Below, in pieces: positions 52 through 38,390 of a stretch of DNA of 64,000 nucleotides. The stretch is from NCBI GenBank assembly GCA_965214705.1, contig OZ243972.1, forward strand, positions 1,184,001 to 1,248,000, in the 5' to 3' direction. Source of the DNA: Alphaproteobacteria bacterium (lineage in GTDB: Bacteria > Pseudomonadota > Alphaproteobacteria > UBA828). The notes beneath the pieces were generated by a model. The model was not told the origin of the DNA, ran no database searches, and saw nothing but the letters and a program-made list of their open reading frames with translations. Position 1 is the stretch's first letter; the number at the start of each line of letters is the position of its first letter. Position numbers and translations under genes: made by a program.

Positions 52-885
52 CTAGTGCTCCGCCCGCGCCGAATCAACGACCCGTCCGAAGAAGACCGAG
101 GCCAGCGCCGCGCCGCCGTGGCAGAGCGTGAAGAGTGCGAGCGCTGCGACCACGATCGACGGGCCGGACGGCGTATCCCAGGCGAGCGAGCCGTGCAGTC
201 CCCCGGCCACCGCCACTGCCCCGATCGCACTTGCGAGCAGCGCCATCTGTTCGGGTGAGCGGGCTAGTCTGCGCGCCGTCGCCGCCGGGATGATCAGCAG
301 CGACACGATCAGGATCAGCCCGATGATTTTCATGGCGATGGCGACCGCGAGGGCGATCAGGAGGGTGAAGACGATGCGGACGAGACCGGCCCGCACGCCT
401 TCGGCACGCGCGAGCTCTTCGTGGACCGTGACGGCCAGCAGGGGCCGCCAGATCAGCGCCGTCGTCACGAGCACTGCGCCGCCGCCGCCGTAGATCCAGA
501 TCAGGTCGCGGCCGGTGATGGCCAGGATGTCACCAAACAGGTAAGTCATCAGGTCCACGCGCACGCTCTGGAGGAAGCTGATTCCGACGAGACCGAGAGC
601 CAGCGTGCCGTGCGCGAGGATGCCGAGGAGCGTGTCTGTGGCCAGTCGACGCTGCTGCTGGAGCAGGAGCAGCAGCAGGGCCAGCGCGACACACATGAGG
701 ATGATGCCGCCGTTGAGGTCGATGCCGAGGACGACGCCGAGCAGAACACCGAGCAGCGCGCTGTGCGCGATCGAATCGCCGAAATAGGCCATGCGCCGCC
801 ACACCATAAAGCAGCCGAGGGGCCCGGTGGCGAGCGCCACGCCGATGCCGCCCGCGAGCGCGCGCGCAAAGAAGTCGTCGAACAT
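52..885 (-). CDS. znuB: Zinc ABC transporter permease
   Basis: MFDDFFARALAGGIGVALATGPLGCFMVWRRMAYFGDSIAHSALLG is a typical ZnuB N-terminus; multi-TM; downstream of znuC and zur. Confidence 0.93.
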   Translation of the reverse strand: MFDDFFARALAGGIGVALATGPLGCFMVWRRMAYFGDSIAHSALLGVLLGVVLGIDLNGGIILMCVALALLLLLLQQQRRLATDTLLGILAHGTLALGLVGISFLQSVRVDLMTYLFGDILAITGRDLIWIYGGGGAVLVTTALIWRPLLAVTVHEELARAEGVRAGLVRIVFTLLIALAVAIAMKIIGLILIVSLLIIPAATARRLARSPEQMALLASAIGAVAVAGGLHGSLAWDTPSGPSIVVAALALFTLCHGGAALASVFFGRVVDSARAEH

Positions 886-894
886 TGCGCGCGG

Positions 895-1740
895 TTAGTC
901 GGCCCGGTCGGGCTCGAGACCGGCGTCGGGTGGGCCGTCCTCGACCGGTGCCACCGCGATGGGGTGGTCGTGGCGGTGGGCGGGGTCGTGGGTGTAGACC
1001 GCGAGCGCGGCGGCTGCACCGGGCCCGAACAGCGAGATGTACTCGGGGTGCCGGCTCACCGCCTCCGGCTCGCCGGCGCAACAGACATGCCCGTTGATGC
1101 ACACCACGCGGTCGGTCGCGCCCAACACCAGGTGGAGGTCATGGGAGATGACCAGCACGCCGCAGCCGCGCCGATTCCGCAGGCGGGCGATCAATTGGTG
1201 CATGGCAAACTGGCCCGCGAAATCGACCTGCTGGATCGGCTCGTCCAGCACCAGCAGGTCGGGGTTACGAAGCAGCGCGCGGGCGAGCAGGACACGCCTG
1301 AACTCGCCGCCGGAAACGTTGCTGAGCTGACGGTCGATCAGGGGCGCCGCCCCCACCTCGTCCAACACCGCGGCGATATCGGCGCGGGCGCGCCGCCCCG
1401 CCATCGCGAGGAAGCGGCGGGCGGTGAGTGGCAGGAGCTCCTGCGGCTCGATCCGCTGAGGGACGTAGCCCACCACGACGCCGGGCGCGTGATGAACGAC
1501 GCCCGCATCCGGCTTGATGAGGCCGAGCAGGGCGCGCACGGCCGTGGTCTTGCCGGCCCCGTTCGGCCCGATCAGGCTCACTACCTCGCGGCGGCGAACC
1601 TCGATCGAGACCCGATCCAGCACCGTGCGGCCGCCGTAGCGCACGACCAGGTCGCGAGCCGAGGCGAGCGGCGCTCCCTCAACGACGTCCTGCGGCGGGC
1701 GGGTCAGGGGGTCGGTGGAAGCGTCGCGCAGCGCGGACAT
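895..1740 (-). CDS. znuC: Zinc ABC transporter ATP-binding protein
   Basis: Walker A GPNGAGKT, signature VSGGE, Walker B LLVLDE, C-terminal CINGHVCC and His-rich tail; exact start uncertain. Confidence 0.92.
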   Translation of the reverse strand: MSALRDASTDPLTRPPQDVVEGAPLASARDLVVRYGGRTVLDRVSIEVRRREVVSLIGPNGAGKTTAVRALLGLIKPDAGVVHHAPGVVVGYVPQRIEPQELLPLTARRFLAMAGRRARADIAAVLDEVGAAPLIDRQLSNVSGGEFRRVLLARALLRNPDLLVLDEPIQQVDFAGQFAMHQLIARLRNRRGCGVLVISHDLHLVLGATDRVVCINGHVCCAGEPEAVSRHPEYISLFGPGAAAALAVYTHDPAHRHDHPIAVAPVEDGPPDAGLEPDRAD

Positions 1741-2210
1741 CTGCCGTGAAGCTCGATAATCGAGCGTGAGAGCGCAAAGCCGGAGTCTGCCGCCCGGTCG
1801 GCGACGGCACGGTCGATACTCGCCGCATTCAGCTCCGATACGTCACCGCAGCCTCCGCATATGAGGAATTGCGCGCTGTGGCGGTGGTCGGGCTGCGGGC
1901 AGCCGACGAAGGCGTTGAGGCTGTCAATTCGATGGACCAGACCCTGGGCCATCAGGAACTCGAGGGCGCGGTACACCGTGGGCGGCTTCGCCGCGCCCAC
2001 CGCATCGCCGAGCGCCGCGAGCAGATCATAGGCCTTGACCGCCCGATGGCTGCTCCAGACCAGCTCCAGCACCCTGCGCCGCAACGGGGTGAGACGAACG
2101 CCGCGCTCTCGGCACACGTCATCGGCGCGGGCGAGCGCGTCCTCGATACAGGACTGGTGCTCGTGCCCGCCTTCGTGGAAGGCCGGCTTGTCGCCCCGCG
2201 TGGTGTTCAT
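1704..2210 (-). CDS. zur: Fur-family zinc uptake regulator
   Basis: RLTPLRRRVLELV, PPTVYRALEFL, CxxC pairs (CGGC, CPRC); directly upstream of znuCB. Confidence 0.9.
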   Translation of the reverse strand: MNTTRGDKPAFHEGGHEHQSCIEDALARADDVCRERGVRLTPLRRRVLELVWSSHRAVKAYDLLAALGDAVGAAKPPTVYRALEFLMAQGLVHRIDSLNAFVGCPQPDHRHSAQFLICGGCGDVSELNAASIDRAVADRAADSGFALSRSIIELHGRCPRCATLPPTP

Positions 2211-2261
2211 TCCTATCTCGATCGCGCCGCCCGCGGCCGTGACGCGCGGGGCCGGCAGGAC

Positions 2262-2274
2262 GTTACACTATAGC
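2262..2274. promoter_or_regulatory. Putative Zur box upstream of zur-znuCB
   Basis: GTTACACTATAGC, an imperfect palindrome with two mismatches to the GTTATA-N-TATAAC Zur core, ~50 nt upstream of the zur start in otherwise GC-rich DNA. Confidence 0.5.
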
Positions 2275-2320
2275 AGAGCCGTCGTGGATTGTTCAGCGAC
2301 CAAGGGCGTTGCGGACGCCG

Positions 2321-3259
2321 TCAGCGCGCCCAGATCGAAACGGTGCTGAGATAAGTGCGATTGTCGCGGTCGAGCGGATAAAAGATCGTGCTGTCGCGCC
2401 CGAACCAGCGCTCATAGATCTCGTCGTAGCGGCTGTTCGCGTCCTTGACGCCGGAGAACATGTCGATGATGACCCGGTTGACCGTGTCGCGCCACGGGCT
2501 GTCGTCCTGCGGCAGAACGCAGGCCAGCGTTTCCATGGCAAGCGCAAAGGTGCGCGGCAGCAGGACCACGCTGCGACGCGGTTCCTGCTTGGCTGCTAGC
2601 CCCAGCAGAGTGATGCCGATATTGGCGACTCCGCTCACCTCGCCTGCCGCAAGCGCGGTCATGGCGTCCTTCATGGTGGGGAAGAGACGCAGGTTGGCCG
2701 TGGGTAGCTGATCCTGGACGATCGTTACCGTGGTGGTGCCCTCGACCACTCCGATATCGAGCATTCCAAGGTCCACGCCACCCATGGTCTTTTCCCGATA
2801 AATCAGAATGCGCGTGCCGTCGCGGAAGAACGGCACGGAAAAGTCGACCAGCGCTTCCCGATCCCAGGTAGGCGTCGTGATGCCGCACACGATGTCGAGC
2901 TCGCCAGCCGCGACCCGCTCGAGCCGGTCAGCGGGCGTTACCTCGTGCAGTTCCAACGCAACGCTCCGCCCCACCTTCTTCTCTGCGGCGGCGCGAATGG
3001 CCTCCAGCAAGTCGACTGAGAAGCCCTCGAAACTGCCTGTTTCCAGCTTCCGGGCGAAGGGCGGTGCGCTCGCCCTGGTACCGGCGCGAATGACGCCCTC
3101 GGCTTCGATCTTGGCAAGGACGCCATCGGCGGCGGCGTGCGCCGGCGGTGCGAGTTGCGGCACGGCCAACGTCAGGAGAGCAAGCACAAGGCCAACGTAT
3201 CGAACGGGCGACCAAGGGCGAGGCCGAGCGAGATATCGACGTTCACCGAAGCCGGTCAT
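2321..3259 (-). CDS. Polar amino acid ABC substrate-binding protein (family 3, GltI/GlnH-like)
   Basis: Signal-peptide-like segment, then GVIRAGTRASAPPF, GFSVDLL, VDFSVPFF, YDEIYERWFG; start set at ATG 3259 (the ORF track extends to 3511). Confidence 0.85.
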   Translation of the reverse strand: MTGFGERRYLARPRPWSPVRYVGLVLALLTLAVPQLAPPAHAAADGVLAKIEAEGVIRAGTRASAPPFARKLETGSFEGFSVDLLEAIRAAAEKKVGRSVALELHEVTPADRLERVAAGELDIVCGITTPTWDREALVDFSVPFFRDGTRILIYREKTMGGVDLGMLDIGVVEGTTTVTIVQDQLPTANLRLFPTMKDAMTALAAGEVSGVANIGITLLGLAAKQEPRRSVVLLPRTFALAMETLACVLPQDDSPWRDTVNRVIIDMFSGVKDANSRYDEIYERWFGRDSTIFYPLDRDNRTYLSTVSIWAR

Positions 3260-3720
3260 CACTACCCCCGAAGGTCTGTTGCCGCTCGCGAAGATTCTTG
3301 GTGCACACACTGGTACCGCGTGCAGGGCGAGCACTGGTAGAGCGACAGCAGAAACTGACTCCTCGCTACTACTACGATACTCTATTTCGCGATTTAGCCA
3401 TATCGGATAGGCTTTCGACTCGTTGCGGCAAGGGGCACCGTGGCAATGGCCTGGAAGGCCATCGGCATGATCCGCCGATCTTTCCTTGGCCACGTCAAAT
3501 CGAGTTGGCACGATGATTCACGCGACGATCATCGACATCCGACGCGCTGCGGCCAAGGCTTCTCGCCGGGCCTCCATGGTGAATACGGCTTCGGCGCGGA
3601 CAAGGTGATGCGATCGCGCGCTCGAGTCTCGCGCTCTGACAGGGAGGTTGCCGAGGACGGCGGCCACTCCAACGACATTCCCATTCCCGAATCGGCAAAT
3701 TTTCACCTGCGGGTTGGCGC

Positions 3721-5322
3721 ATGAGCCGGCGTCTTTCCAAGTGGTGGCTCCTTCTCGCGGTCTTGCTCACCGCCTGGGCAGGCTTGGCCGTTCCCGCGCT
3801 CGCCGACCGGCTGCAGGAAATTCAGGACCGCGGCCACGTGATCGTCGGCGTCAAGGAGGACTATGCGCCCTTCGGCTTCCGCGACGCAGAGGGAACGCTG
3901 GTTGGCTACGACGTGGACGTGGCGCGCGGCTTCGCAGAGGCCATCGGTGTCGACGTCGAGCTGGTGCCGGTGACCAGCGCCAATCGCCTGCAAAAGGTAG
4001 GCCGGGGCGAGATCGACATCGTCGCCGCCACCATGGGGGATACCCGCAGTCGCCGCGAGCTGGTCACCATGATCGAGCCGCAATACTACGGCGATGGCGC
4101 CAACGTGCTGCTGCGGGACAGCGCCAAGATCGGCACCTGGGCCGACCTGCGCGGCCAGACCGTTTGCGGGCTTCAGGGCTCGCTCTGGAACCGGCTGGCC
4201 AAGCAGCGGCTGCTGCTCGACGTGACAGCATTCAACAGCACCCGCGAAGCCGCCCAAGCGTTGCGCAACGAGCATTGCGTCGGCTGGATCTACGACGAGG
4301 TCCTCCTTCTCCACGAGATCGAGACCGGCGATTGGGAGGGCTATAGCGTCTCCCTGCCGACGCGCTTCGTGCTGCCCTGGGCCGTCGCTATCGCCAAGGA
4401 GGAGGGCGGTGGATCGCTCGATCAGATACTTGGCGACACGCTAGCGCAGTGGCATCGCGACGGCTTCCTGCAATCGCTGGAAAAGAAGTGGGGCCTGCCG
4501 CCTTCTCCGTTCATCCGAGACGCGCGCACCACCTGGCAAGAGGTCGACGAGGCCGGCGAGTTGAAATGCCAGCGCAACGAGCAGGGTCAGTGGCCGCTGG
4601 AATGCCGCGAGGTTGCTCTCGTCACCGGCAGCGGTATCGGCGGCCTCTCGGGCTTCTCGCTGACCATCATGGAGGTGACGGGTCTCGACATCAGCATTCT
4701 GTACGACCCGCTCGACCGAGACGTATTCCTTTATGGGCTGGGACTGACGGCGCTTCTGTCAGTGATCACGGTGGTTGGCAGCATCGTCCTCGGCGTGCTG
4801 TTCGGCTGGCTGATGCACCGGCGAGTGCCCGGCGTGAGCCACTTCCTGCGGGGGTTCAGCGAGTTCATGCGCATGACGCCCCCGCTGCTCCAGCTCTATA
4901 TCGTGTTCTTCGGCCTGGGCGGCGTCCTGCTGGCTCTCGGTTTCACCCTCGACGCCTTCCTTGTCGCCGCCGTGGTGCTGTCGCTCTACGCGGCGTCGAG
5001 CAATGCCATCGCGTTTTCGCTGGCGGCCGATGTTGCCGCTGCAGGCGGCCGCCGGCTCCGCCTCACGCCCAGGGACATTCAGCGGGGATTCGCGCTCTGC
5101 TACGCCGCGGTCATGGGCAACTCCGCCAACATCGTGAAAGCCACAGGGATGGCCAGTACCCTCGCGCTGCCCGAGCTCGTCCACGCCAGCACCTCCATCG
5201 TGGCCGAAAAGGGCAACGCCGACGTGATGATGAATCTGCTTCTGATCTGTTACTTCGTCCTGGTCATCATCACGGTCCAGCTCTTCCGGCGTTTCGAGCG
5301 GGGCAAGGCCGTCACGCGATGA
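3721..5322 (+). CDS. Fused family-3 substrate-binding domain + amino acid ABC permease
   Basis: Signal peptide; VGVKEDYAPFGF...GYDVDVA binding domain; C-terminal HisM/GlnP-type TM domain (FMRMTPPLLQLYIVFFGL). Confidence 0.88.
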   Translation: MSRRLSKWWLLLAVLLTAWAGLAVPALADRLQEIQDRGHVIVGVKEDYAPFGFRDAEGTLVGYDVDVARGFAEAIGVDVELVPVTSANRLQKVGRGEIDIVAATMGDTRSRRELVTMIEPQYYGDGANVLLRDSAKIGTWADLRGQTVCGLQGSLWNRLAKQRLLLDVTAFNSTREAAQALRNEHCVGWIYDEVLLLHEIETGDWEGYSVSLPTRFVLPWAVAIAKEEGGGSLDQILGDTLAQWHRDGFLQSLEKKWGLPPSPFIRDARTTWQEVDEAGELKCQRNEQGQWPLECREVALVTGSGIGGLSGFSLTIMEVTGLDISILYDPLDRDVFLYGLGLTALLSVITVVGSIVLGVLFGWLMHRRVPGVSHFLRGFSEFMRMTPPLLQLYIVFFGLGGVLLALGFTLDAFLVAAVVLSLYAASSNAIAFSLAADVAAAGGRRLRLTPRDIQRGFALCYAAVMGNSANIVKATGMASTLALPELVHASTSIVAEKGNADVMMNLLLICYFVLVIITVQLFRRFERGKAVTR

Positions 5323-5996
5323 CCGCGCAGGAGACCGTCGACGTCCTGTGGGCCTGGTCGCCCTACCTGGCGGAAGGATTTGGCTGGAACATCATTGTTT
5401 CCTTGGTTGCCATGGCCGTCGGTACCATCGTCGGCCTGGGGCTGGCGTTGCTGCGGGGTGGCGCCCACTGGAGTGTGAGGCATAGCGGCAGCGCGGTGAC
5501 GACGCTCGCGCGCAATGCGCCGACCTTCGTCATGTTGTTCTATCTCGCCTACATCATCCCCACCGAGTTCACTCTCTTCGGCGCCGCCGTGACATTCCCG
5601 GCGTGGATCAAGGCGTCGCTCGCGTTGGGCATCGCCGTCGCCGGTTACGTGTCCGACAACGCGCTCGCCGCCATACGGCATCTGCGCCGCCACGAGATCG
5701 CGGAGGCGCTGCTGTTCGTGCCGGCATGGACCAGCTACTTTCTGATCATCGTCATGGCCTCCAGCACCGCCTCGGTAATCGGTGTGCCCGAGCTCGTACG
5801 CCGCGCGGATACGGTGATCGGCGCGGTCGACAAGGTGGGGCTCGCGCTCTGGGTCTATCTTTGGGCCATGATCTGGTTCCTCGGGTTTAGCCTGCTGCTG
5901 ACCTTCGGCATGAACCGGCTGAGCGGCTATCTCAGGCGGCGCGCACACCACCCGGAGACGGAGACCACGGACCTCACTGGGAGTCCGCTGCCATGA
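5319..5996 (+). CDS. Amino acid ABC permease (HisM/GlnP-like, atypical)
   Basis: ATGA overlap with the previous gene; PYLAEGFGWNIIVSL, RNAPTFVMLFYL, SSTASVIGVPEL. Confidence 0.85.
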   Translation: MTAQETVDVLWAWSPYLAEGFGWNIIVSLVAMAVGTIVGLGLALLRGGAHWSVRHSGSAVTTLARNAPTFVMLFYLAYIIPTEFTLFGAAVTFPAWIKASLALGIAVAGYVSDNALAAIRHLRRHEIAEALLFVPAWTSYFLIIVMASSTASVIGVPELVRRADTVIGAVDKVGLALWVYLWAMIWFLGFSLLLTFGMNRLSGYLRRRAHHPETETTDLTGSPLP

Positions 5997-6051
5997 CGGC
6001 GTCCCCCGCCCGGCGTCGGCAGTCGCTGGGCACCGTTGCCGACCGCTCCCT

Positions 6052-8037
6052 GTGACCCTTTCCAGACGACTGATCATCACGGTCGCCGCGTCCGTCGGCG
6101 TCGCGATCATCGGCGTCTCGCTGGCGATGGGCTTGCTCGCGCGCGATGCCTTGATCGAGCAGGCCGAAGATCAGGCGCGGCTCGTCGCCGGGCTGATCGC
6201 GAGCGAAGCCAACCGTGCGGAGCACACCGCCGACGAGATCGACCGAATGATCGTCGGGCAGATGGAAGCGCAGGCGCTGGCCATCGCCCGCCATCTCGAT
6301 AACCGCGCGCATGGGACAGAAGACGAGGGCGCTCTCGGCATCTATTTCGCAAAGCTGACGGCGGACAGCGTTGTCGATGATGTCTGGCTGCTGGACGAAG
6401 CCGGTACGCCGCTGGTGCGCGCGGTCGAAGGCCTGAGCCAGAGCGATGCGCCGGATCTGGCGTCCGCCGGGATCGATCCCCGTGTCGTGGAGGCCTTAGT
6501 CTCGGGGCGGCGTTTTTCCGTCGCCTTCCAGTCGATGCCGCCGAAGGGGTTGGAAAAACCTATCAGGTACGTCGGCGTTCGCGCAGGCACTCGCGAGTCC
6601 GTGCTGGTCGGGACGCTGGCGGCGGACACCAGCGGTCCCGGCGAGGTCATCGGCATCGACGCGGCTCTGGACTCGCTGGCCGGGCGGGAAGCCGTCCAGG
6701 CGATCTGGGTGGTCAACGACTTGCTTCACCTCATCGGCATGGCCACCTTCGGGGGCAGAGGCGTCTCCGAAGCCGAGGCGGCGTTGTCGGCGGAGGACCA
6801 GGACCTTGCCACCCGCGCTCTCGGTATCGACGGCGCCGTCTCGTATCTCGGCGAGCATGCCCTCCATGTGGCGGCGCCGATCCTTGATCGCGGTGGGGTC
6901 GCCACGGGCGCCGCCGTAATCCACATGCAGCGAGACCATCTGGATCAGCTGTTCGCGGACCACATCAAGTACGGATTGATCGTGGCTGCGGCAGCCTTCG
7001 CCATCGGCTCGCTCATCGCGGCGTTCTCCGCGCGCCGTATCGTGCAGCCGGTCACCGCGTTGACCACGGCGGCAGCGGAGGTGGATACCGATACGCTCAG
7101 TTTCGCCCCGGAAACGCTGGACCCGGTGGCCGTTCGGCGGGACGAGCTCGGGACGCTGGTCCGCGTCTTTCAGAACATGGTGCGACAGGTCCAGGCGCGC
7201 GAGGAATACCTGGAAAGCATGGTGCGCGCCCGCACGCGCGAGCTGGAGGCATCGAACGCGCAGCTGGAAAAGGCCAAGCAGCGGATGGAATCCGAGCTCA
7301 TGATCGCGCACGCCTTGCAGGGAGCGATCCTACCCAAGACGCTGCCGGAGAGTTCGAGCTATTCGGGGCACGCGGTCATGACGCCTGCGCGCGAAATGGG
7401 CGGCGACTTCTACGACTTCTTCACCCTCGACGACGGTCGCCTCAGCGTGGTCATGGCGGACGTTTCCGGTAAGGGCGTGCCGGCCGCGTTCTTTATGGCG
7501 ATCGCGCGGACCGTCATGCGGGCCGCCGCGGCCCGGCATCCCACCCCGGGCCCATGCCTGGAGGAAGTCAACGACGCCATATGCGAGCAGAATCCCCAGG
7601 ACCTGTTCGTGACGCTCTTCTACGGCATCCTGAATCCCGAGACTGGAGAGTTCGTGTACGCCAACGCCGGGCACAACCCGCCCTACGTGGTTCAGCATCC
7701 TGGCGCAGTTTCGGCGTTGCCAATGACCGGGGGCATGGCTGTCGGTGTCATGCCCGGATTGCCCTATGCCGAGGACGCGGTAAATCTGGCTCCGGGAGAC
7801 ACGATGTTCCTCTACACCGACGGCATCACCGAGGCCATGAACGTGGACGACGAGGAGTTCACCGAGGCACGCCTGGAGGAGGTCTTGGCCGAAGGTCGCG
7901 ATCTGCCTGTCGATTCCATCCTTGAGAATGTCACCAGCGCGGTGGTTAACTTCGCTGCGGGAGCAGAGCAGTCCGACGACATCACCTGCATCGTGCTGCG
8001 CTATGACGGTACGGCAGATCACGGCGCCTCCGGCTGA
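6052..8037 (+). CDS. Membrane sensor PP2C/SpoIIE (RsbU-like) serine phosphatase with HAMP domain
   Basis: Two TM segments flank a periplasmic region; HAMP (RRDELGTLVRVFQNM); SpoIIE motifs GGDFYDFF, ADVSGKGVPAA, NAGHNPP, YTDGITEA, SDDIT. Confidence 0.92.
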   Translation: MTLSRRLIITVAASVGVAIIGVSLAMGLLARDALIEQAEDQARLVAGLIASEANRAEHTADEIDRMIVGQMEAQALAIARHLDNRAHGTEDEGALGIYFAKLTADSVVDDVWLLDEAGTPLVRAVEGLSQSDAPDLASAGIDPRVVEALVSGRRFSVAFQSMPPKGLEKPIRYVGVRAGTRESVLVGTLAADTSGPGEVIGIDAALDSLAGREAVQAIWVVNDLLHLIGMATFGGRGVSEAEAALSAEDQDLATRALGIDGAVSYLGEHALHVAAPILDRGGVATGAAVIHMQRDHLDQLFADHIKYGLIVAAAAFAIGSLIAAFSARRIVQPVTALTTAAAEVDTDTLSFAPETLDPVAVRRDELGTLVRVFQNMVRQVQAREEYLESMVRARTRELEASNAQLEKAKQRMESELMIAHALQGAILPKTLPESSSYSGHAVMTPAREMGGDFYDFFTLDDGRLSVVMADVSGKGVPAAFFMAIARTVMRAAAARHPTPGPCLEEVNDAICEQNPQDLFVTLFYGILNPETGEFVYANAGHNPPYVVQHPGAVSALPMTGGMAVGVMPGLPYAEDAVNLAPGDTMFLYTDGITEAMNVDDEEFTEARLEEVLAEGRDLPVDSILENVTSAVVNFAAGAEQSDDITCIVLRYDGTADHGASG

Positions 8038-8109
8038 GGGCGACTGGTTGTGCCATCGCGCAGCAACGTATCAAATGAGCGAAGACCATCTGAGGGTGAA
8101 GAAATCGGT

Positions 8110-8690
8110 AGCGGAAATTGCTCTTCCACGCTGTCATAAGAGAACACGTGTAGTGTGGAACCAGCGCAAACGACGTCAGTTCGAGGTTTGGCGTCAAAAA
8201 TGAGTTTCCGAAGCGGCGAAACAGGGAGGCGATGATCATGAGCGGATACGAGAAAGTGCCCCCGTAAGAGCAGCTAAGGTGAAGGCGGCCGGCGATACCG
8301 AGGCGAAAGGGATCGTCGGCGGGACCAGGCAAGGGAGCCCAAATCACGCCAGCCGACGGAAGGAGAGTTCACGAACTCCACCGGCGGCCGAAGCCCCGGC
8401 GTTCCGTCGCGAAACCGCCGAGTTGGTCCGCTAGAACCGAAGCTGCACAGCCAATCCCACGCGTCCCAGCGGGCCCCTGAATTTTGCCAGAGGCCCGGGC
8501 GGGGCAGCTACAACAAGCCCGACCAGGCGAGATGGGTTCCCTGTCGCCTGGACGGGGCCAAACCTTACGGTCGAACGTTCGACGCCTCGACCTGGGACGG
8601 ATGGGAGGTATCGGTGGATCCACCCCGGCCCCTATCGGTGGGCCGGCACAGCGCGACTCAAACAATTTCGACGTTGCGGTCGCGCCCTTA
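8110..8690. ncRNA. Candidate large structured non-coding RNA, family not recognised
   Basis: About 660-nt gap with no convincing long CDS and many nested helices, e.g. 8112-8119/8203-8210, 8124-8133/8151-8160, 8172-8179/8188-8195, 8288-8296/8312-8320, 8354-8361/8402-8409, 8462-8469/8592-8599, 8523-8530/8544-8551. Confidence 0.45.
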
Positions 8691-8700
8691 GGGATAGGCC

Positions 8701-9645
8701 ATGCCCGTTACGTTGCGCCAGCTAAGATACTTTCAAGCACTGATCGAGCACGGCTCCTTCAGTCGCGCGGCAGAGAGCGTTCACGTCTCGCAACCGGCAC
8801 TCTCGCTCCAAATTCGCGAACTGGAGGCCTCGCTCGGCGGGCCGCTGGTCGAGCGCGAGAGCCGCGGCATCCTCCTCACCCCCCTCGGGCGGGAGGCGCA
8901 TGAGCAGACGCTCCGGATACTGGACGAAACGCTGCTTCTCGAAACCATGGGGCAGCGATTCGAAGCGGGTCCGCTCAGAGTCGCCGTTGGAGTCGTCTCT
9001 ACGCTCGCGCCCTACCTGCTTCCAGGAATGCTGAGCCATCTGCCCGACGCTTCACCCCGTATCGAAATCGACATCCTGGAAGCACCGGGTCAGGCCCTCG
9101 TGTCCGGGCTCCTCGCCGGACGTCTCGACGCCGCCATCGTCTCGCTTCCGCTGGGAATGCTGGAGCTGCCCGAGCGCGAGCTGTTCGAGGACCGCCTCGT
9201 GCTCGCCGGTCGCGCCGAGCGTCTCGCCTCGATTCGCCGCTCTCTCGGCGACGACTTGCGCCCGGAGGACTTGGCCCGCGCCGACATAGGACCGCTCCTT
9301 ACGCTCGGCGACGGTCATTGCCTGGCTGATCAGGTTCTGGGTGCCTGCCTGATGTGGCGCATGCAAGAGGTGCGCCGCGGAGCACAATCGCTCGCCACAC
9401 TGTCGCGGCTCGTCGCAAGCGGTGCGGGATTGACGCTCCTGCCTGAGACGGCCGCGCTCGCCGAGAGCACGGCCACCCCGGAGCTGAGTTTTCTCCGTTT
9501 CGCTGCGCCTGAGCCCCTGCGGCGGATCGGCCTCACCCATCGCGTCGCCGCTCACGGCCAACGCTGGATCGATCTGCTGGCCGAGGCTGCGACGAGAGCC
9601 GGTCAGGCTCTCACGGAGGAAGCACAGAAGGAAATCGGATCGTGA
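8701..9645 (+). CDS. LysR-family regulator, OxyR-like
   Basis: HTH TLRQLRYFQAL...SQPALSLQIRELE; GHCLADQVLGAC matches the OxyR C199/C208 spacing. Confidence 0.88.
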   Translation: MPVTLRQLRYFQALIEHGSFSRAAESVHVSQPALSLQIRELEASLGGPLVERESRGILLTPLGREAHEQTLRILDETLLLETMGQRFEAGPLRVAVGVVSTLAPYLLPGMLSHLPDASPRIEIDILEAPGQALVSGLLAGRLDAAIVSLPLGMLELPERELFEDRLVLAGRAERLASIRRSLGDDLRPEDLARADIGPLLTLGDGHCLADQVLGACLMWRMQEVRRGAQSLATLSRLVASGAGLTLLPETAALAESTATPELSFLRFAAPEPLRRIGLTHRVAAHGQRWIDLLAEAATRAGQALTEEAQKEIGS

Positions 9646-9681
9646 GCTTAGCCCGCGGAAGGGCGATTGGGCTTCAGGCAG

Positions 9682-10020
9682 TCACCCGTCGACGGAGGCG
9701 AGTGCTTCGTCTCGCGACGCGTGGACCGGGATGATGGTGTCGAAGCCGCTCGTCTCGAAGACGACCCGGACCTGATCCGAAAGCGAGTGCAGCGCGAACC
9801 GCGTGTCGCGATTCGAAAGGCTCTTGGCGATGTTGAGTATCGTGCGGAGACCCGCGCTGCCAATGTAGAGCAGCCTCTCGCAGTTCACGATGACCGCGCG
9901 ATCGCTGTCGGCGACCGCGGTTTCGATCGCCTCTCGGAACTCGAGCACGGTGGAGCCGTCAATGCGGCCTTCCACCCGCACCGATAGCACGCCGTCCTTC
10001 CGATCCATCGTTACGTCCAT
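9682..10020 (-). CDS. STAS-domain anti-sigma factor antagonist (RsbV/SpoIIAA-like)
   Basis: VEGRIDGST...YIGSAGLRTIL (phosphoacceptor Ser region)...VFETSGFDTII; start 10020 or 10032. Confidence 0.88.
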   Translation of the reverse strand: MDVTMDRKDGVLSVRVEGRIDGSTVLEFREAIETAVADSDRAVIVNCERLLYIGSAGLRTILNIAKSLSNRDTRFALHSLSDQVRVVFETSGFDTIIPVHASRDEALASVDG

Positions 10021-10102
10021 GGTGTGCTGCATCGCCACGAGCGCCCCTAGTGCGGCTCGACCCGCTTCCGCCTGGTGCGGCGTTCGCTTCGCTCGACCGG
10101 CG

Positions 10103-11407
10103 TCATACGACAGCGAGCCGCTCAAGCGCAGGCGGGCGCGGCCCTCCGGTCGCCCAGTCGAGCAGCTCGACCGTGTGCACCACCGGCAACGTGGTGTGCC
10201 CGGCGATCTGGACCATGCAGCCGATATTGCCTGCAGCCACGAGCGCGGCACCGGTGCCCTCGATCGCCGCTGCCTTGCGAGCGCCGAGTTCACCGGCCAA
10301 GTCGGGCTGAAGCATATTGTATGTGCCCGCCGAACCGCAGCAGAAATGCCCGTCCGGGACCGTTCGCACGGTAAAGCCGGCGGCGGCAAGGAGCGCTATC
10401 GGCTGTCGGTCGATCTTCTGGCCGTGCTGCAGCGAGCAGGCCGAGTGATAGGCGACGGGTGCATTCGTCGGCGGCGTCGCGGAGCCCGAGACGCCCAGTT
10501 CGTCGAGCACCTCGCTGACGTCGCGAGCGAGCCCTGCCACCTGCGCACCGGCTTCGGCGTGGGTCTCGTCGTCCTTGAGCAGGTGGCCAAAGTCCTTGAG
10601 CATCGTCCCGCAGCCGGACGCCGTGGCGACGATCGCATCGAGACCGCCCGGGGCTGCCTCGCGCGCGAATGAGGCCGCCGCACGTCCGGCTTGCGCGTGG
10701 CCCCGCTCCTCGTCTCCCAGATGGTGCGCAAGTGCGCCGCAACAGCCGGCGCCGCGCGGCACCACCACTTCGCAGCCGTGGCGGGTGAGCACGCGCACCG
10801 CCGCCTCGTTGATCTCCGGCGCCAGCACGCATTGCACGCAACCCGTGAGCAGCGCCACCCGCTTGCGCCGCTGCCCCTGGGCCGGGATGACCTGCGGTCG
10901 CTCGACCCAGCTCGGCCCGTACGACGGACGGCCCGCAAGCCTGAGCAGGGCGCCGAGCCTTCCACTGAAGAGCGGCGCCAGCAGCGCCGGCCCCCGTGCG
11001 GCGAGGAGCGCGAGACGCGCCAAACTAGGGCGGGGCAGCACAGCGCCAAGCAGGGTGCGAATCGCGCGCTCGACGAGCGGTCGTTCCCAGGTGCGCTCGA
11101 TGTGGCCGCGCGCATGGTCGACCAGATGCATGTAGTCGACTCCCGCCGGGCAGGTCGTCATGCACGAGAGGCAGGAGAGGCAGCGGTCGATGTGGCGGGT
11201 GACCGTGGCGTCAGCTGGCGCGTCCTGCTCCAGCATGTCCTTGATCAGGTAGATGCGCCCGCGCGGGCTGTCCCGCTCGTCGCCGAGCAGCGCATAGGTC
11301 GGGCAGGTGGCGAGGCAGAGTCCGCAATGGACGCAGGTGCGGAGCACCTCGTTGGCTTGCGCCAGTGCCGGGAGCGCCAGCTGGCTCTCGGAGAACTGGG
11401 TCTGCAT
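10103..11407 (-). CDS. glcF: Glycolate oxidase iron-sulfur subunit
   Basis: CVHCGLCLATCPTY, CLSCLSCMTTCP, CCG domains; start MQTQFS at 11407. Confidence 0.93.
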   Translation of the reverse strand: MQTQFSESQLALPALAQANEVLRTCVHCGLCLATCPTYALLGDERDSPRGRIYLIKDMLEQDAPADATVTRHIDRCLSCLSCMTTCPAGVDYMHLVDHARGHIERTWERPLVERAIRTLLGAVLPRPSLARLALLAARGPALLAPLFSGRLGALLRLAGRPSYGPSWVERPQVIPAQGQRRKRVALLTGCVQCVLAPEINEAAVRVLTRHGCEVVVPRGAGCCGALAHHLGDEERGHAQAGRAAASFAREAAPGGLDAIVATASGCGTMLKDFGHLLKDDETHAEAGAQVAGLARDVSEVLDELGVSGSATPPTNAPVAYHSACSLQHGQKIDRQPIALLAAAGFTVRTVPDGHFCCGSAGTYNMLQPDLAGELGARKAAAIEGTGAALVAAGNIGCMVQIAGHTTLPVVHTVELLDWATGGPRPPALERLAVV

Positions 11408-24894: not shown

Positions 24895-26310
<1,416 letters not shown>

Positions 26311-26328
26311 CGGTCTCCTCTTCCCGCG

Positions 26329-27978
26329 CTAGACGCGGTTGCGGTCGAAGGTTGGCTGCACACCCGACCCGTAGAGCTTGAGCGCTCCGTCGGGGCCGAC
26401 GGTGTTTGGGCGCTGGAATATCCAGTTCTGCCAGGCGGAGAGGCGGCCGAAAATCTTGGTCTCGAGAGTCTCTGGCCCGGCGAAGCGGAGCGATGCCTCC
26501 ATGCCGGAGAGCGCGTCGGGCGAGAACGCCGCGCGCGCCTCGATGGCGATACGCACCTCGTCCTCCCAGTCGATATCGTCGGGGATGAAGGTGACGAGCC
26601 CCAACGCCTCCGCCGCCTCGGCGTCGAGATCGGTGTCGAGGGCCGCGTGCGTTGCCGCAAGCGCTTCATCATCGTCGAGGAAGCGGCTGGCAAGGCGGGA
26701 GAGCCCGTTCGCCATTGGCAGCGAGCCGGCGTTCATCGCCGTGAGCCGCACCGTCGCCGGCGCCTCGTTCGAGCCCTCGAAGGTGCCGTCCAACATGAAG
26801 CTGCGATCACCCGCGAGTGCGAGCTCCAGCAGCGTGCCCGTGAAGCACGAACCGGGCTCGATCAGCGCGACGAGGCTGCGCGCGCTCACGTCGAGGCGTT
26901 TCAGGGTCCGCTTCAAATAGAGAGTGATCTCGCGTACCAGCCAGTCGCCGGCATTGGCTGCGAGCGCGGCATCCGCCGCCGCAACGCGCTCTGCCGCTCC
27001 TGTCGTCTTGAGAACCCAGGTGCCGAGCGCCGGCTCATTGAAGCGCAGGTGCAGGATCGCGTCGTCAAGCTCGCGCGCGAGCGCCAGCGGCCAAAAGTCC
27101 GCGCCGGCTGTGTGGATCGCGTCGGGCTCGGCAGACGGCGGCGCGTCCGGCGCGGCCACCGTGAGCGTCGCCGTTCCCTGCGCCCGGTCGAGCGCGACCT
27201 GGACGTGGCGGTAGGCCATGGCGTCCTCGCTCACCGTGCGCTCCAGCGGGGGCAATTTGATCCCGCGCGCATCGGCCGGCCGGTCCGATGTATCCGTCAA
27301 GGCTGCGGCGCGGGCGGCGACGGCATCGTCGAGCCGCGAGCGCGGCACCAATTCGTCCACCAGCTTCCACTCCAGCGCACGGCGCCCGCGCACGCCCTCG
27401 CCCGTGGTGCAGAAATAATCAGCACGGTCGCGCCTGACGCATCGCTTGTCGACGACGCGGGTGAGCCCGCCGGTGCCCGGCAGCACCGCCAGCAGCGGCA
27501 CCTCGGGCAGCGACACGGCAGTCGAGCCGTCATCGACCAGAATGATGTGGTCGGTCGCGAGCGCGAGCTCGTAGCCGCCGCCCGCGGCGGTTCCAGCGAT
27601 TACCGTCATCCAGCGCTGGCCCGCGTTGGCCGAGGCATCCTCGATGGCGTTGCGGGTCTCGTTGGTGAACTTGCAGAAATTGACCTTGTCGATGTGCGAG
27701 GAGCGGGACAGCATCGGGATATTCGCGCCGGCCGAGAAGACGCGCTCCTTCGCCGACGTCAGCACCACTGCCCGCACCTGCGGATGTTCGAAGCGGAGCC
27801 GCTGGGCGGCATCCGCGAGCTCGATATCGACGCCGAGATCGTAGGAGTTGAGCTTCAGCGCATAGTCGCCGCCGATGCCGCCATCCTCGTCCACGTCGAG
27901 CGCGAGCGTGGCGATGGCGCCGTCGATGGAGAGCCGCCAGTGGCGGTATTGGTCCGGATGGGTCCGGAAGTCGATCAT
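26329..27978 (-). CDS. boxC: 2,3-epoxybenzoyl-CoA dihydrolase
   Basis: IDFRTHPDQYRHW, KLNSYDLGVDIELADA, KVNFCKFTNETRN, RLSAWQNWIFQRPN. Confidence 0.95.
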   Translation of the reverse strand: MIDFRTHPDQYRHWRLSIDGAIATLALDVDEDGGIGGDYALKLNSYDLGVDIELADAAQRLRFEHPQVRAVVLTSAKERVFSAGANIPMLSRSSHIDKVNFCKFTNETRNAIEDASANAGQRWMTVIAGTAAGGGYELALATDHIILVDDGSTAVSLPEVPLLAVLPGTGGLTRVVDKRCVRRDRADYFCTTGEGVRGRRALEWKLVDELVPRSRLDDAVAARAAALTDTSDRPADARGIKLPPLERTVSEDAMAYRHVQVALDRAQGTATLTVAAPDAPPSAEPDAIHTAGADFWPLALARELDDAILHLRFNEPALGTWVLKTTGAAERVAAADAALAANAGDWLVREITLYLKRTLKRLDVSARSLVALIEPGSCFTGTLLELALAGDRSFMLDGTFEGSNEAPATVRLTAMNAGSLPMANGLSRLASRFLDDDEALAATHAALDTDLDAEAAEALGLVTFIPDDIDWEDEVRIAIEARAAFSPDALSGMEASLRFAGPETLETKIFGRLSAWQNWIFQRPNTVGPDGALKLYGSGVQPTFDRNRV

Positions 27979-28089
27979 CGTACCCGCCGTCTATCGGGCA
28001 GCGGCCAACGCGTCCCGACATCGATTGTTCCTTGCGGACTATATGGCGCGCCGCTCTCCGCCATCCACGGGAATCTTCCCGACAAACCG

Positions 28090-29406
28090 CTAGTCCTTGG
28101 GGCGCAGGTCGACGATACGCTTGGCCTTGCCGGCCGAGCGTTCGATCGAGCCCGGCTCTCCGACCGTGACTTTGCTGCTGATGCCGATCAGAGACCGAAT
28201 GCGGCCGGCGAGATCGCGCCCAGCCACCCGTCGCGTCTCGTCATCGGCGGCGCCGGGCTTGGCCTCGACGACCACCGTCAACTCGTCGAGGCGGCCCGGC
28301 CGCCGCACTTCGAGGTAGTAGTGCGGCGTGAGACGCTGGTCTTCGAGCACGATCTCCTCGATGAACGGCGGGAACAGGTTGACGCCGCGGATGATCAGCA
28401 TGTCGTCGTTGCGTCCCGTGACCCGCTGCATGCGCCGCATGGCGCGCGCGGTGCCTGGCAGCAGCCGGGTGAGGTCGCGGGTGCGGTAGCGAATGATGGG
28501 GCACGCTTCCTTGGTGAGAGACGTGATGACCATTTCTCCCGCCTCGCCGTCGGGCAGCACGGCGCCGGTCTCGGGATCGATGATCTCGGGGTAGAAGTGG
28601 TCCTCCCAGATGTGGAGACCGTCCTTGCTCTCCACGCACTCGATGGAGACGCCGGGGCCGATCGCCTCGGAGCACCCGTAGATGTCGATCGCCTGCATGG
28701 CGAAGCGGGTCTCGATCTCCTCGCGCATCGCTTCAGTCCACGGTTCGGCGCCGTGAATGCCGATCTGCAGCGAGCAACGCCGCGGGTCCAGCCCCAGGCG
28801 CTCGAACTCGTCGCCGATCGCCAGCATGTAGGACGGCGTGACGGCGATGACCCGCGGCTCGAAGTCGTAGATCATGCCCACCTGTCGCTCGGTGAACCCG
28901 CCCGACGCCGGGACCACGGTGCAGCCGAGCTTCTCGGCGCCGGCGTGAAGGCCGAGGCCGCCGGTGAAGAGCCCGTAGCCGTAGGCGATGTGAACCATGT
29001 CGCCGGGGCGGGCGCCGGCGGCGCGCAGGCAGCGGGCGACCAGGCCGGCCCAGGTGTCGAGGTCGTTCCTCGTGTAACCCACGACGGTGGGAATGCCGGT
29101 GGTGCCGCTCGAGGCATGGATGCGGATGATCTGCTCGCGCGGAACCGCGAACATGTCGAAGGGGTAGTTGAGGCGGAGGTCGTCCTTGACCGTGAACGGG
29201 AACCTGGCGAGGTCGTCGAGGGACGTGAGATCGGCCGGGCTCACGCCCGCTTCGTCGAAACACCTCTTGTAGTGAGGCACGTTGTCGTAGGCGCGCCGCA
29301 GGGTCGCTTGCAGCCGCGTGAGTTGCAATGCCGCGATCTCGTCGCGGCTCGCGGTCTCGATGGGGTCGAGCTCGTCCGGGCGCGGGGGGCGAACGGGGTC
29401 GTTCAT
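28090..29406 (-). CDS. paaK: Phenylacetate-CoA ligase family (PaaK-like) aryl-CoA ligase
   Basis: HASSGTTGIPTVVGYT, YGYGLFTGGLG, IWEDHFYPEII, IIRYRTRD; start MNDP at 29406. Confidence 0.85.
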   Translation of the reverse strand: MNDPVRPPRPDELDPIETASRDEIAALQLTRLQATLRRAYDNVPHYKRCFDEAGVSPADLTSLDDLARFPFTVKDDLRLNYPFDMFAVPREQIIRIHASSGTTGIPTVVGYTRNDLDTWAGLVARCLRAAGARPGDMVHIAYGYGLFTGGLGLHAGAEKLGCTVVPASGGFTERQVGMIYDFEPRVIAVTPSYMLAIGDEFERLGLDPRRCSLQIGIHGAEPWTEAMREEIETRFAMQAIDIYGCSEAIGPGVSIECVESKDGLHIWEDHFYPEIIDPETGAVLPDGEAGEMVITSLTKEACPIIRYRTRDLTRLLPGTARAMRRMQRVTGRNDDMLIIRGVNLFPPFIEEIVLEDQRLTPHYYLEVRRPGRLDELTVVVEAKPGAADDETRRVAGRDLAGRIRSLIGISSKVTVGEPGSIERSAGKAKRIVDLRPKD

Positions 29407-29551
29407 GGCATCCCTCTTGCGGTGCCGCACCATAGCGCATCCCGCGCCGGCGGCATCGCCTGCGTTGACACGCCCCCGCCCTGAGCGGATAGTCCGGCGC
29501 CTGTCGAAGGGGCGCCGGTATCGGCCGCCCGCACCCGTCAGGCGCCTGCTC

Positions 29552-30454
29552 ATGTCTCCATCGAATGTCTCAACCGACAGCGCCGGGCCGATCGAGGACC
29601 CGGCGGGCGTGATTGCCTTCCAGGGGGCGCCGGGCGCTTTCTCCGAGGCCGCCTGCATGGCCCGCTACCCGGCGATGACCACGCTCCCCTGCAAGACTTT
29701 CAGCGATACCTTCGCCGCCGTCGCCCAGGATCGCGCCGGGCTCGCCATGATCCCGATCGAGAACTCGGCGGCGGGCCGCGTTGCCGACATTCACCAGCTC
29801 CTGCCGGAATCCGACCTCCACATCGTCGAGGAACACTTCGAGCGCGTGCGCCACAACCTCCTTGCTTGCCACGGCGCCGACCCGTCGAAGCTCGAGACCG
29901 TGCGCTCGCACGTGCACGCGCTCTCCCAGTGCCGCAAGCTCATCGCGCGGCGCGGTCTCGTGCCGATCGTGCACGCCGATACGGCAGGCGCTGCCGCCGA
30001 GGTGGCGGCGACGGGCGACTCGACCCGGGCCGCGATCGCCTCCCAGCTCGCCGCCGAAACCTATGGGCTGGCGATCGTCGAGGCGAACATTGAGGACGAA
30101 GCCCACAACACGACGCGCTTCGTGGTGCTGTCGCGGCAGCCGGCCGATCCCGGCGCGGACGCCGGGCCAGTGATCACCTCCTTCATGTTCCAGTGCCGCA
30201 ACGTGCCGGCGGCGCTCTACAAGTGCTTGGGCGGCTTCGCCACCAACAGCGTCAACATGACCAAGCTGGAAAGCTACATGGTTGACGGCAGCTTCTCAGC
30301 AACGGTCTTCTTCGCTGAGGTCGAGGGGCATCCGTCCGAAACCGCACTGGCGCGCGCCCTGAGCGAGCTTGACTACTTTTCGCGCGAGGTGCGGATCATG
30401 GGCGTCTACCCGGCCCATCCCTACCGCCGCGAGGCCGCCGCCATCAGGCGCTGA
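29552..30454 (+). CDS. pheA: Prephenate dehydratase
   Basis: AFQGAPGAFSE, IPIENS, NTTRFVVL, ACT domain NMTKLES. Confidence 0.93.
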   Translation: MSPSNVSTDSAGPIEDPAGVIAFQGAPGAFSEAACMARYPAMTTLPCKTFSDTFAAVAQDRAGLAMIPIENSAAGRVADIHQLLPESDLHIVEEHFERVRHNLLACHGADPSKLETVRSHVHALSQCRKLIARRGLVPIVHADTAGAAAEVAATGDSTRAAIASQLAAETYGLAIVEANIEDEAHNTTRFVVLSRQPADPGADAGPVITSFMFQCRNVPAALYKCLGGFATNSVNMTKLESYMVDGSFSATVFFAEVEGHPSETALARALSELDYFSREVRIMGVYPAHPYRREAAAIRR

Positions 30455-37831: not shown

Positions 37832-37970
37832 GTCCTGCACCAGCCTCTGAGCCCGATCCGGTGGCCGCTTGGCCAAGGTATGCGCCACTGTGGCCTGAGT
37901 ATAGTACAGGTGGCGGCGGCTCTGAATCCCAACGGGCATAGCCTCCGGGCCCGGAGAAGGAAGGCCGCCG

Positions 37971-38390
37971 ATGGAAGCCGACGAGATCATCGCCCGCTAC
38001 GAACTGACGCCCCACCCGGAGGGTGGCCACTACCGCGAGATTTTTCGGGCGCACGCCGAAGACGGTGGCCGCGGCGCGGTGACCTCCATCTATTACCTAT
38101 TGCGGGCCGGGGAGGTCTCGGCCTGGCACCGGGTCGATGCGGTGGAGATCTGGCACTACCACGCCGGCGATGCGCTCAGACTCGAGATTTCGCTCGATAG
38201 CGTGACGACCACGAGCCATCGGCTTGGCGTGGGCGAGGGGGCCTGGCCGCAGGTCGTGGCACCCGTCAGCGCCTGGCAGAGCGCGCGTTCGGAAGGCGTC
38301 TGGACCCTGGTCGGCTGCACGGTCGCGCCGGCCTTTGAGTTCGACGGCTTCGAGCTCGCTCCGCCCGGCTGGCAGCCGGCTGGCTCGTAG
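37971..38390 (+). CDS. Cupin domain protein (DUF985/Cupin_5)
   Basis: LTPHPEGGHYRE, TSIYYLL, EIWHYHAG, GCTVAPAFEF. Confidence 0.9.
   Translation: MEADEIIARYELTPHPEGGHYREIFRAHAEDGGRGAVTSIYYLLRAGEVSAWHRVDAVEIWHYHAGDALRLEISLDSVTTTSHRLGVGEGAWPQVVAPVSAWQSARSEGVWTLVGCTVAPAFEFDGFELAPPGWQPAGS

Follow-up and report, generated by a model that had tools for sequence, protein, structure and literature searches.

A 64,000-nt stretch of an alphaproteobacterial genome (assembly GCA_965214705.1, contig OZ243972.1, positions 1,184,001 to 1,248,000 of the forward strand; hereafter the window) carries, at 2321-10020, the binding and membrane parts of a polar-amino-acid ATP-binding cassette (ABC) importer beside a membrane phosphatase of the PP2C/SpoIIE type and a STAS protein. 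Very probably these importer parts form an ABC-derived module that operates independently of an ATPase and is functionally coupled to a phosphatase/kinase pair. The five genes concerned encode substrate-binding proteins or domains (SBPs, SBDs), transmembrane domains (TMDs) and the two switch proteins, as follows.

2321-3259, minus strand: SbpA, a free periplasmic family-3 SBP of 312 residues with a signal peptide (Pfam SBP_bac_3, 76.4 bits)
3721-5322, plus strand: SBD-TMD (SBD-permease) fusion of 533 residues (Pfam SBP_bac_3, 93.7 bits)
5319-5996, plus strand: second permease (second TMD) of 225 residues, without a Pfam match and assigned by its modelled fold
6052-8037, plus strand: membrane HAMP-SpoIIE (PP2C) phosphatase of 661 residues with two transmembrane (TM) helices (SpoIIE 183.2 bits, HAMP 26.5 bits)
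9682-10020, minus strand: single-domain STAS protein of 112 residues (Pfam STAS, 70.2 bits)

Because the G+C content of the window is about 67%, genes were chosen by third-position G+C and then confirmed with family searches, in which 56 open reading frames (ORFs) were scanned against family models. A preliminary description made from the sequence had placed these five genes at these positions, and both the family matches and direct reading of the sequence bear this out. The SbpA gene diverges from the fusion gene, the fusion gene and the second permease overlap in an ATGA at 5319-5322, which amounts to translational coupling, and the phosphatase gene begins with a GTG 55 nt past the stop of the second permease. 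The same description had called the cluster free of an ATPase; ZnuC (895-1740) is indeed the sole ABC_tran match among the scanned ORFs.

Importer fold and EAA loop of the membrane domains

In ABC importers the ATPase docks at the EAA coupling loop, which in the TMDs carries the motif EAA...G...I.LP. Pfam BPD_transp_1 matches neither TMD of the module, and the second permease is without any Pfam match. The NCBIfam model HEQRo_perm_3TM, which covers the N-terminal three helices, gives 41.3 bits for the fusion TMD and 41.6 bits for the second permease against a cut-off of 42.2. Since no Pfam or NCBIfam model reaches its cut-off, the permeases cannot be placed in an existing family. A profile of the second permease built from 29 homologues matched one solved transporter subunit, ArtQ (4yms_D, E = 1.4e-8), and left about 20 ArtQ residues unaligned precisely at the EAA region; the profile of the fusion TMD matched only this same chain (E = 6.4e-8), with a 10-residue gap at the EAA motif. 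The nearest canonical relatives of the second permease were taken from an exhaustive profile search: the six nearest carry 'GQWEA..AL.......Q.......PQ' at the EAA site, and all three that were scanned against Pfam match BPD_transp_1. When aligned, the second-permease family has a clean 18+2-residue deletion at the canonical EAA site, where the fusion TMD has an unrelated, variable stretch. Neither TMD thus carries the EAA coupling motif of type I importers.

The AlphaFold2 model of the second permease (predicted local distance difference test, pLDDT, 76.7; predicted TM-score, pTM, 0.71) has a cytoplasmic loop of about 9 residues between helices 95-123 and 133-154, with a 4-residue helix at 127-130. 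A Foldseek search with this model returned ArtQ 4yms_D as the best match (TM-score 0.66/0.69, E = 2.6e-5), and MetI with a TM-score of 0.54. The importer fold is indicated by the model and the structure match for the second permease, and by sequence profile only for the fusion TMD. As modelled, the second permease retains the type I importer fold with a shortened coupling loop, and presumably it forms a membrane heterodimer with the TMD of the fusion protein. No other observation argues as strongly against an ABC ATPase driving the pair as the loss of the EAA loop from its two subunits.

The second permease has 47 invariant columns across its 29 homologues. Among 1.84 billion representative proteins, the permease family comprises 54 clusters at E <= 1e-30 and 240 at E <= 1e-10, and weaker matches shade into canonical permeases. 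Some distant relatives of 645-657 residues (P0232, P0235 and P0283) and one of 484 residues (P0150) end in a C-terminal NMT1_3-type or SBP_bac_3 domain.

Survey of related loci

The permease profile was run against 185,579 species genomes in one scan, which yielded 145 relatives, and the best 80 loci were taken with 10-kb flanks (L001-L080); all stop-to-stop frames of at least 60 residues were then searched with the window proteins. The fusion gene lies directly upstream of the second permease in all 80 loci (as two ORFs in L067), a separate SBP orthologue is found in 70, and a phosphatase with both periplasmic and PP2C parts in 69, with a further one (L008) cut by a contig end. Downstream sequence of at least 3.2 kb was available for 70 loci; in 64 of these the phosphatase is either fused to the permease or found no more than 1.2 kb downstream of it. 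The linkage to SpoIIE that had been proposed from the window is therefore conserved, and is extended by in-frame permease-phosphatase and permease-kinase fusions.

A cognate GlnQ/HisP-type ATPase was found in or beside the module in 0 of the 80 loci. Two of the three findings that would have spoken against the receptor reading of the preliminary description, a cognate ATPase in homologous clusters and an unconserved link to SpoIIE, did not occur; the third, an orphan GlnQ elsewhere that drives uptake, is made unlikely by the lack of the EAA loop in both permeases. That reading is supported. Two probes retrieved 33 ABC-ATPase ORFs: ZnuC matched 31, spread over 27 loci, and the other two were picked up with a HisP-type probe. 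ZnuC itself accounts for 15 of them, which lie in 14 loci of the syntenic clade of the window; for 17, NCBIfam gave the types PotA/UgpC/MalK, LptB, LivF/G, DppF, two-domain sugar type, SufC, taurine/nitrate and YbbA/LolD, and the two ORFs matched only by the HisP probe stand outside this typing. The only HisP-type ORF (L029) is situated 6.4 kb upstream of the module, next to an SBP of its own.

Carriers of the module include several cultured alphaproteobacteria and many wastewater genomes of Competibacteraceae, Accumulibacter and Defluviicoccus. Aquamicrobium zhengzhouense, Oryzicola mucosus and Zavarzinia aquatilis are examples of cultured, non-pathogenic carriers. In one locus (L005) with a permease 92% identical to that of the window, the free SBP, zur and znuC are absent from the 8.3 kb upstream (of 8334), unlike in its clade-mates. 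Two module copies occur in a Defluviicoccus metagenome-assembled genome (MAG; L022 and L025), where permease and phosphatase are fused in one copy and separate in the other, and in a Contendobacter MAG (L062 and L066). Two loci labelled Anaerolineae (L031) and Gammaproteobacteria (L034) are nearly identical, on the permease tree, to the alphaproteobacterial L028 and L033 (terminal branches of 0.008 and 0.005), which points to contigs that were mis-binned or transferred very recently.

Natural fusions and alternative partners

Permease and phosphatase are joined in a single frame in 12 of the 80 loci. Among database homologues of the second permease, 24 are longer, and 22 of these have about 855 residues and a SpoIIE domain. 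In one such protein the last permease helix leads through a cytosolic linker of about 10 residues into TM1 of the phosphatase, and the remainder matches the window phosphatase from residue 2 on. A C-terminal HATPase_c_2 kinase domain follows the permease in five database proteins of about 384 residues, in two more found by exhaustive search, and in the loci of Zavarzinia aquatilis (L044) and a Bosea MAG (L079). On a tree of the permease domain (a quick IQ-TREE run with several branches unresolved), the phosphatase fusions share a 14-member clade, separate from the clade of the kinase fusions, so that at least two independent kinds of fusion exist. The ArtQ-type fold has its C-terminal end in the cytoplasm, so that the kinase domain comes to lie on the cytoplasmic side and TM1 of the phosphatase beside the permease. 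P0144 (492 residues), in which the permease and the first part of the phosphatase are linked to a PF06965 domain, has the look of an assembly chimera.

The phosphatase is truly absent from eight loci, and the free SBP is absent from all eight. Other proteins follow the permease in most of these phosphatase-less loci: a methyl-accepting chemotaxis protein in L047 (3709-5229); a protein of about 1000 residues combining Peripla_BP_6 and MscS in two Azospirillum species and one MAG (L055:10698-13640, L050:10658-13666 and L064:10698-13652); and a 548-595-residue protein without a Pfam or NCBIfam family in Siccirubricoccus, Paracraurococcus and an Acetobacteraceae MAG (L052:10662-12446, L043:4777-6444 and L073:3663-5306). 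In L059 nothing follows. Given these different followers, the TMD pair behaves as a plug-in module for signalling or gated proteins.

In 62 of the 80 loci the module comes with a gene for a class I S-adenosylmethionine (SAM) methyltransferase, mostly directly upstream of the fusion gene (L015-L080, usually at about 7450-8400 in locus coordinates) and in four loci about 5 kb downstream instead (L046, L048, L049 and L079). Its product matches the generic families Methyltransf_23/25/12 and is without a specific NCBIfam family. The gene is absent from the clade of the window (L001-L014) and from window positions 3260-3720, where tblastn detected no remnant.

Binding proteins and binding domains

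Both binding units match SBP_bac_3, the family-3 binding domain of polar-amino-acid importers, at the scores listed above, and both are closest to solved binders of glutamine, arginine, glutamate and aspartate. For SbpA the nearest structure is AncQR (4zv1, E = 1.3e-19), followed by Glu/Asp, Gln and Arg binders; for the binding domain of the fusion protein the matches include the GlnPQ chains 6h30, 4la9 and 4kpt. The T..R element, which we take to be the position that binds the alpha-carboxylate in family-3 SBPs, is kept in both. The ligand is presumably amino-acid-like. The best NCBIfam match of SbpA is the orphan SBP GrrP (TIGR04262), an identity we rejected at 131.7 bits against a cut-off of 190.

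The fusion protein consists of a signal peptide (1-28), a family-3 domain (about 29-260), a Cys linker and a membrane domain (about 318-533). In an alignment of 31 orthologues, RMTPPLL and N470/K473/A474/T475 are invariant. So are two cysteine pairs, C149/C186 inside the binding domain and C283/C295 in the 'C.R...G.WP..CR' linker between the binding and membrane domains, which from the alignment are probably periplasmic disulfides.

Phosphatase and its sensor domain

The phosphatase is laid out as TM1 (about 6-28), a periplasmic domain (29-305, encoded at 6136-6966), TM2 (about 306-328), HAMP (326-381), a coiled coil and a SpoIIE/PP2C domain (460-651). Aspartates 452, 455, 470, 590, 642 and 643 are invariant across 32 orthologues and are presumably the metal ligands. 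The AlphaFold2 model of the 277-residue periplasmic domain (pLDDT 81.3) retrieved with Foldseek, as all of its top matches, dCache/PDC sensor domains of kinases and chemoreceptors (probability 1.00, TM-score 0.32-0.43), with the periplasmic domain of LuxQ at rank 50 in the list. Sequence matches of this domain are weak: dCache_1 is matched by 7 of the 32 orthologues (best E = 1.6e-4) and CHASE8 by 9. Judged by its model the domain is dCache-like, and together with HAMP it gives the phosphatase the layout of an outside-in receptor. Identity with SiaA was rejected, as the phosphatase reaches 109.1 bits against the cut-off of 700 of model NF038263 and only its HAMP-PP2C part (316-651) aligns.

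STAS protein and kinase

The STAS protein scores 77.5 bits with the NCBIfam anti-sigma-factor-antagonist model ant_ant_sig (cut-off 53.45) and has, as judged by eye, a serine in 'YIGSAGL', which we take to be the position of the SpoIIAA phospho-serine motif. Orthologues of this particular protein (100-215 bits, against 25-62 bits for other STAS proteins) occur in 30 loci, always within about 6 kb of the module. Their positions vary: after lysR in the clade of the window, beside the kinase in L016 and L018, and between the genes for an ammonium transporter (Amt) and a type III glutamine synthetase (GSIII) in the L021-L042 group. Since proximity is conserved despite this rearrangement, a functional link between STAS protein and module is supported. 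The STAS protein is the likely substrate of the phosphatase.

An RsbW-like domain is encoded in 33 of the 80 loci, a STAS protein in 49 and either of them in 53. The module kinase of these loci is a distant relative of RsbW (25.7 bits against an RsbW cut-off of 145). The window had been described as lacking an RsbW-type kinase, and we agree: there was no HATPase_c_2 match among the 56 ORFs, and tblastn with three RsbW-like probes gave a best E-value of 0.24. A further tblastn search for remnants of the kinase or the methyltransferase, using the proteins of the closest clade and including the gaps at 8038-8700 (664 nt) and 3260-3720 (461 nt), found none (best E = 0.09), and the ORFs in the gap searched were short and unconvincing. 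No sigma factor was found among the scanned window ORFs or among the annotated neighbours of RsbW and STAS genes in the related loci.

The STAS gene of the window adjoins glcDEF. Two arrangements recur elsewhere: GPP34, ammonium transporter, STAS and GSIII (L023:1614-6437 and 13 similar loci; Amt is present in 18 loci and GSIII in 14), and a GlcNAc-2-epimerase-like gene, STAS, isoamylase/GlgX, STAS and an RsbW-like gene (L056:14249-19527 and 12 similar, that is, 13 Competibacteraceae/Accumulibacter loci). The location of STAS genes within metabolic clusters suggests outputs other than a sigma factor, and their presence among nitrogen-assimilation and glycogen genes points to nutrient-state control of storage metabolism.

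Proposed mechanism

We propose that the parts of a polar-amino-acid ABC importer would serve as a receptor, with the SBD-TMD fusion and the second TMD forming the usual membrane heterodimer. As the ATPase and both EAA loops are gone, this pair cannot be powered in the way of an importer; it would instead sit against the dCache-HAMP-PP2C membrane phosphatase. An amino-acid-like ligand would be caught by the tethered binding domain, by the free SBP or by both, and the loaded domains would dock on the TMD pair and/or the dCache domain. The resulting change would travel through the TM helices and HAMP of the phosphatase and set the activity of its PP2C domain. The phosphatase would then strip phosphate from the STAS protein, which would be rephosphorylated by an RsbW-like kinase encoded in other lineages, beside the second TMD or fused to it, and not in the window. 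We favour this outside-in receptor model in full as the probable one, if with clearly less assurance than the coupling itself; that the signal runs from SBPs and permeases to the phosphatase, and what lies downstream, are presumptive. More tentatively still, the importer may have turned into a pure receptor, in which the ATPase-free TMD heterodimer would translate the docking of loaded binding domains into control over a phosphatase and kinase assembled at the membrane; these would set the state of the STAS protein, and the STAS protein may regulate metabolic enzymes or transporters directly, not a sigma factor.

Points against the receptor model and alternative explanations

Several observations weigh against a receptor of this kind. 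Polar motifs within the membrane (VSDN, NxxKAT and GN..MMN) are strongly conserved in the TMDs and, as sequence features, could equally be the marks of a surviving translocation path. The methyltransferase of the 62 loci is unexplained by the model. The dCache domain could detect a ligand on its own or be the direct binding partner of the free SBP, and the distribution of the genes (free SBP and phosphatase both present in 67 loci, both absent from eight, discordant in none) gives a hint of a direct route from the free SBP to the dCache domain that bypasses the TMDs; this pattern corresponds to only 3 changes on the tree, that is, 1-3 independent contrasts, and is therefore treated as a lead only. 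That the TMD pair touches the phosphatase is our supposition; a complex prediction run without controls (TMD of the fusion, residues 318-533, with the second permease and phosphatase residues 1-345) gave a score of 0.00 and a mark of 0.32 and counts neither way. The STAS gene lies 1.6 kb from the phosphatase gene, on the opposite strand and past a LysR gene, and with both kinase and sigma factor missing the partner switch in the window is incomplete. The 80 loci, finally, are mutually related and come from a single permease-seeded search, so their counts are not independent events.

Two alternatives draw on these points. The TMD pair may be an ATP-independent facilitator or gated pore that is regulated by the switch, from the cytoplasm towards the transporter, or the methyltransferase may trap a substrate after its passage. 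The conserved polar motifs, the methyltransferase gene lying directly upstream in most of the loci that have it, the channel-type PBP6-MscS protein after the module in three loci and the kinase fused at the cytoplasmic end of the permease in some species all speak for such a function, yet the phosphatase has a periplasmic dCache sensor and HAMP of its own, in outside-in layout, the clade of the window is without the methyltransferase, and no case of a type I ABC TMD pair transporting without ATP is known to us, although no search was aimed at this point. We hold it to be unlikely.

Sensing may alternatively proceed as in LuxP/LuxQ, with the free SBP binding the dCache domain and the TMD pair a scaffold or vestige that carries no signal. 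The dCache-like fold, with the LuxQ domain among its matches, and the joint gain and loss of free SBP and phosphatase would agree with this, as would the gene order of one large clade, in which the free SBP gene stands immediately in front of the phosphatase gene. A vestige, however, would hardly be so conserved (47 invariant columns in 29 permeases, and the fusion gene in every locus) or joined in one frame with the phosphatase, by a linker of 10 residues, or with a kinase, and the co-occurrence rests on the few contrasts given above; we regard this reading as improbable to much the same degree as a facilitator.

An ordinary polar-amino-acid importer with a shared ATPase encoded elsewhere and the phosphatase a mere neighbour is very improbable: although the window covers 64 kb of the genome and leaves room for a distant GlnQ, both SBDs resemble transport SBPs and in one locus of 80 (L029) a HisP-type ATPase is encoded 6.4 kb upstream, that ATPase adjoins its own SBP, the docking loop is missing from both TMDs, BPD_transp_1 fails on both, no cluster contains a cognate ATPase, and in-frame phosphatase and kinase fusions together with linkage in 64 of 70 loci would be unexpected for a chance neighbour.

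Relation to known systems

The receptor that we favour shares parts with several kinds of known system. With polar-amino-acid transport (PAAT) importers such as Art(QN)2 of Thermoanaerobacter (PDB 4yms) and GlnPQ it has in common family-3 SBPs and the type I TMD fold; as in GlnPQ a binding domain is fused before a TMD, and the module likewise has a pair of TMD genes, coupled by the ATGA. Unlike these importers it has no ATPase gene in the window or in the 80 clusters, its EAA loops are gone, BPD_transp_1 is unmatched, and its TMDs are linked or fused to signalling enzymes. The likeness to RsbU-RsbV-RsbW and SiaABCD lies in a PP2C/SpoIIE phosphatase with an N-terminal sensor and HAMP/coiled coil, a single-domain STAS protein and, in related loci, HATPase_c_2; unlike in RsbUVW, the kinase and sigma factor are absent from the window and the input is an ABC-derived membrane module.

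LuxP-LuxQ and TorT-TorS are SBP-dependent sensors in which, as here, the gene of a periplasmic SBP neighbours that of a membrane sensor whose periplasmic domain is of the PDC/dCache type; the combination of a double PDC/Cache domain and an SBP gene alongside is found in the module, with the free SBP in 70 of 80 loci. The module differs from them in that a PP2C phosphatase stands at the output in place of a histidine kinase or chemoreceptor, and in that the TMD pair is an obligatory extra.

A transporter or transporter homologue feeds a signalling protein in BceAB-BceS, PstSCAB-PhoU-PhoR and DctA-DcuS, and in yeast in Ssy1 and Snf3/Rgt2. The bacterial ABC systems known as co-sensors keep an active ATPase and still transport, and the transporter-derived receptors of yeast are textbook cases. 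The module resembles the non-transporting yeast receptors (Ssy1, Snf3/Rgt2) but is built on an ABC scaffold, without ATPase and docking loops.

A possible parallel to the methyltransferase is offered by Bacillus cereus RsbK-RsbM-RsbY, where the methyltransferase RsbM is reported to act on RsbK, the sensor upstream of a PP2C partner switch (PMC4574943). RsbK is a hybrid histidine kinase; the methyltransferase accompanying the module is generic and absent from the window. A term search of a review on SBP-dependent signalling gave no match for SpoIIE, PP2C, partner or anti-sigma (PMC8050422), and an ABC-derived membrane input is unmentioned in the portions of the partner-switch literature searched. 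An ABC TMD pair linked to a PP2C/partner switch was not found described in the full-text literature searched, which lay largely outside subscription journals.

Other features of the window

The module is flanked by zinc-uptake and glycolate-oxidase genes, identified by family searches together with a regulator gene.

52-885, minus strand: znuB
895-1740, minus strand: znuC
1704-2210, minus strand: zur
8701-9645, plus strand: LysR/OxyR-like regulator
downstream, beyond the STAS gene: glcFED

G+C content per kb is 0.62-0.67 in window positions 2001-10000 against 0.69-0.73 in these flanking genes; the lower composition of the module region fits horizontal acquisition. A promoter and terminator scan of 2200-10200 was uninformative, with 3 promoter-like sites (1.0 expected) and 5 terminator-like sites (4.5 expected), and an Rfam search of all 64 kb returned no RNA family match. 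Farther on, a cluster resembles aerobic benzoyl-CoA or phenylacetyl-CoA catabolism, with a weak PaaA_PaaC-like oxygenase, a 549-residue protein of the enoyl-CoA hydratase family and an AMP-binding ligase, and a MORN-repeat and SH3_3 protein is also encoded in the window (cluster and protein span 24895-29658 and 36647-37990).

Implications

A whole conserved family seems to have dropped its ATPase and docking loops and to have become the input of a Ser/Thr phosphorylation switch. If this is true, genes that at present bear the annotation 'ABC transporter permease' or 'hypothetical protein' would have to be reclassified, and the natural 855-residue fusions would be ready-made material for structural work. 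The family would also offer a natural test of what becomes of an ABC membrane dimer once its motor is gone, and would represent a new class of input for partner-switching systems, whose signals are mostly unknown.

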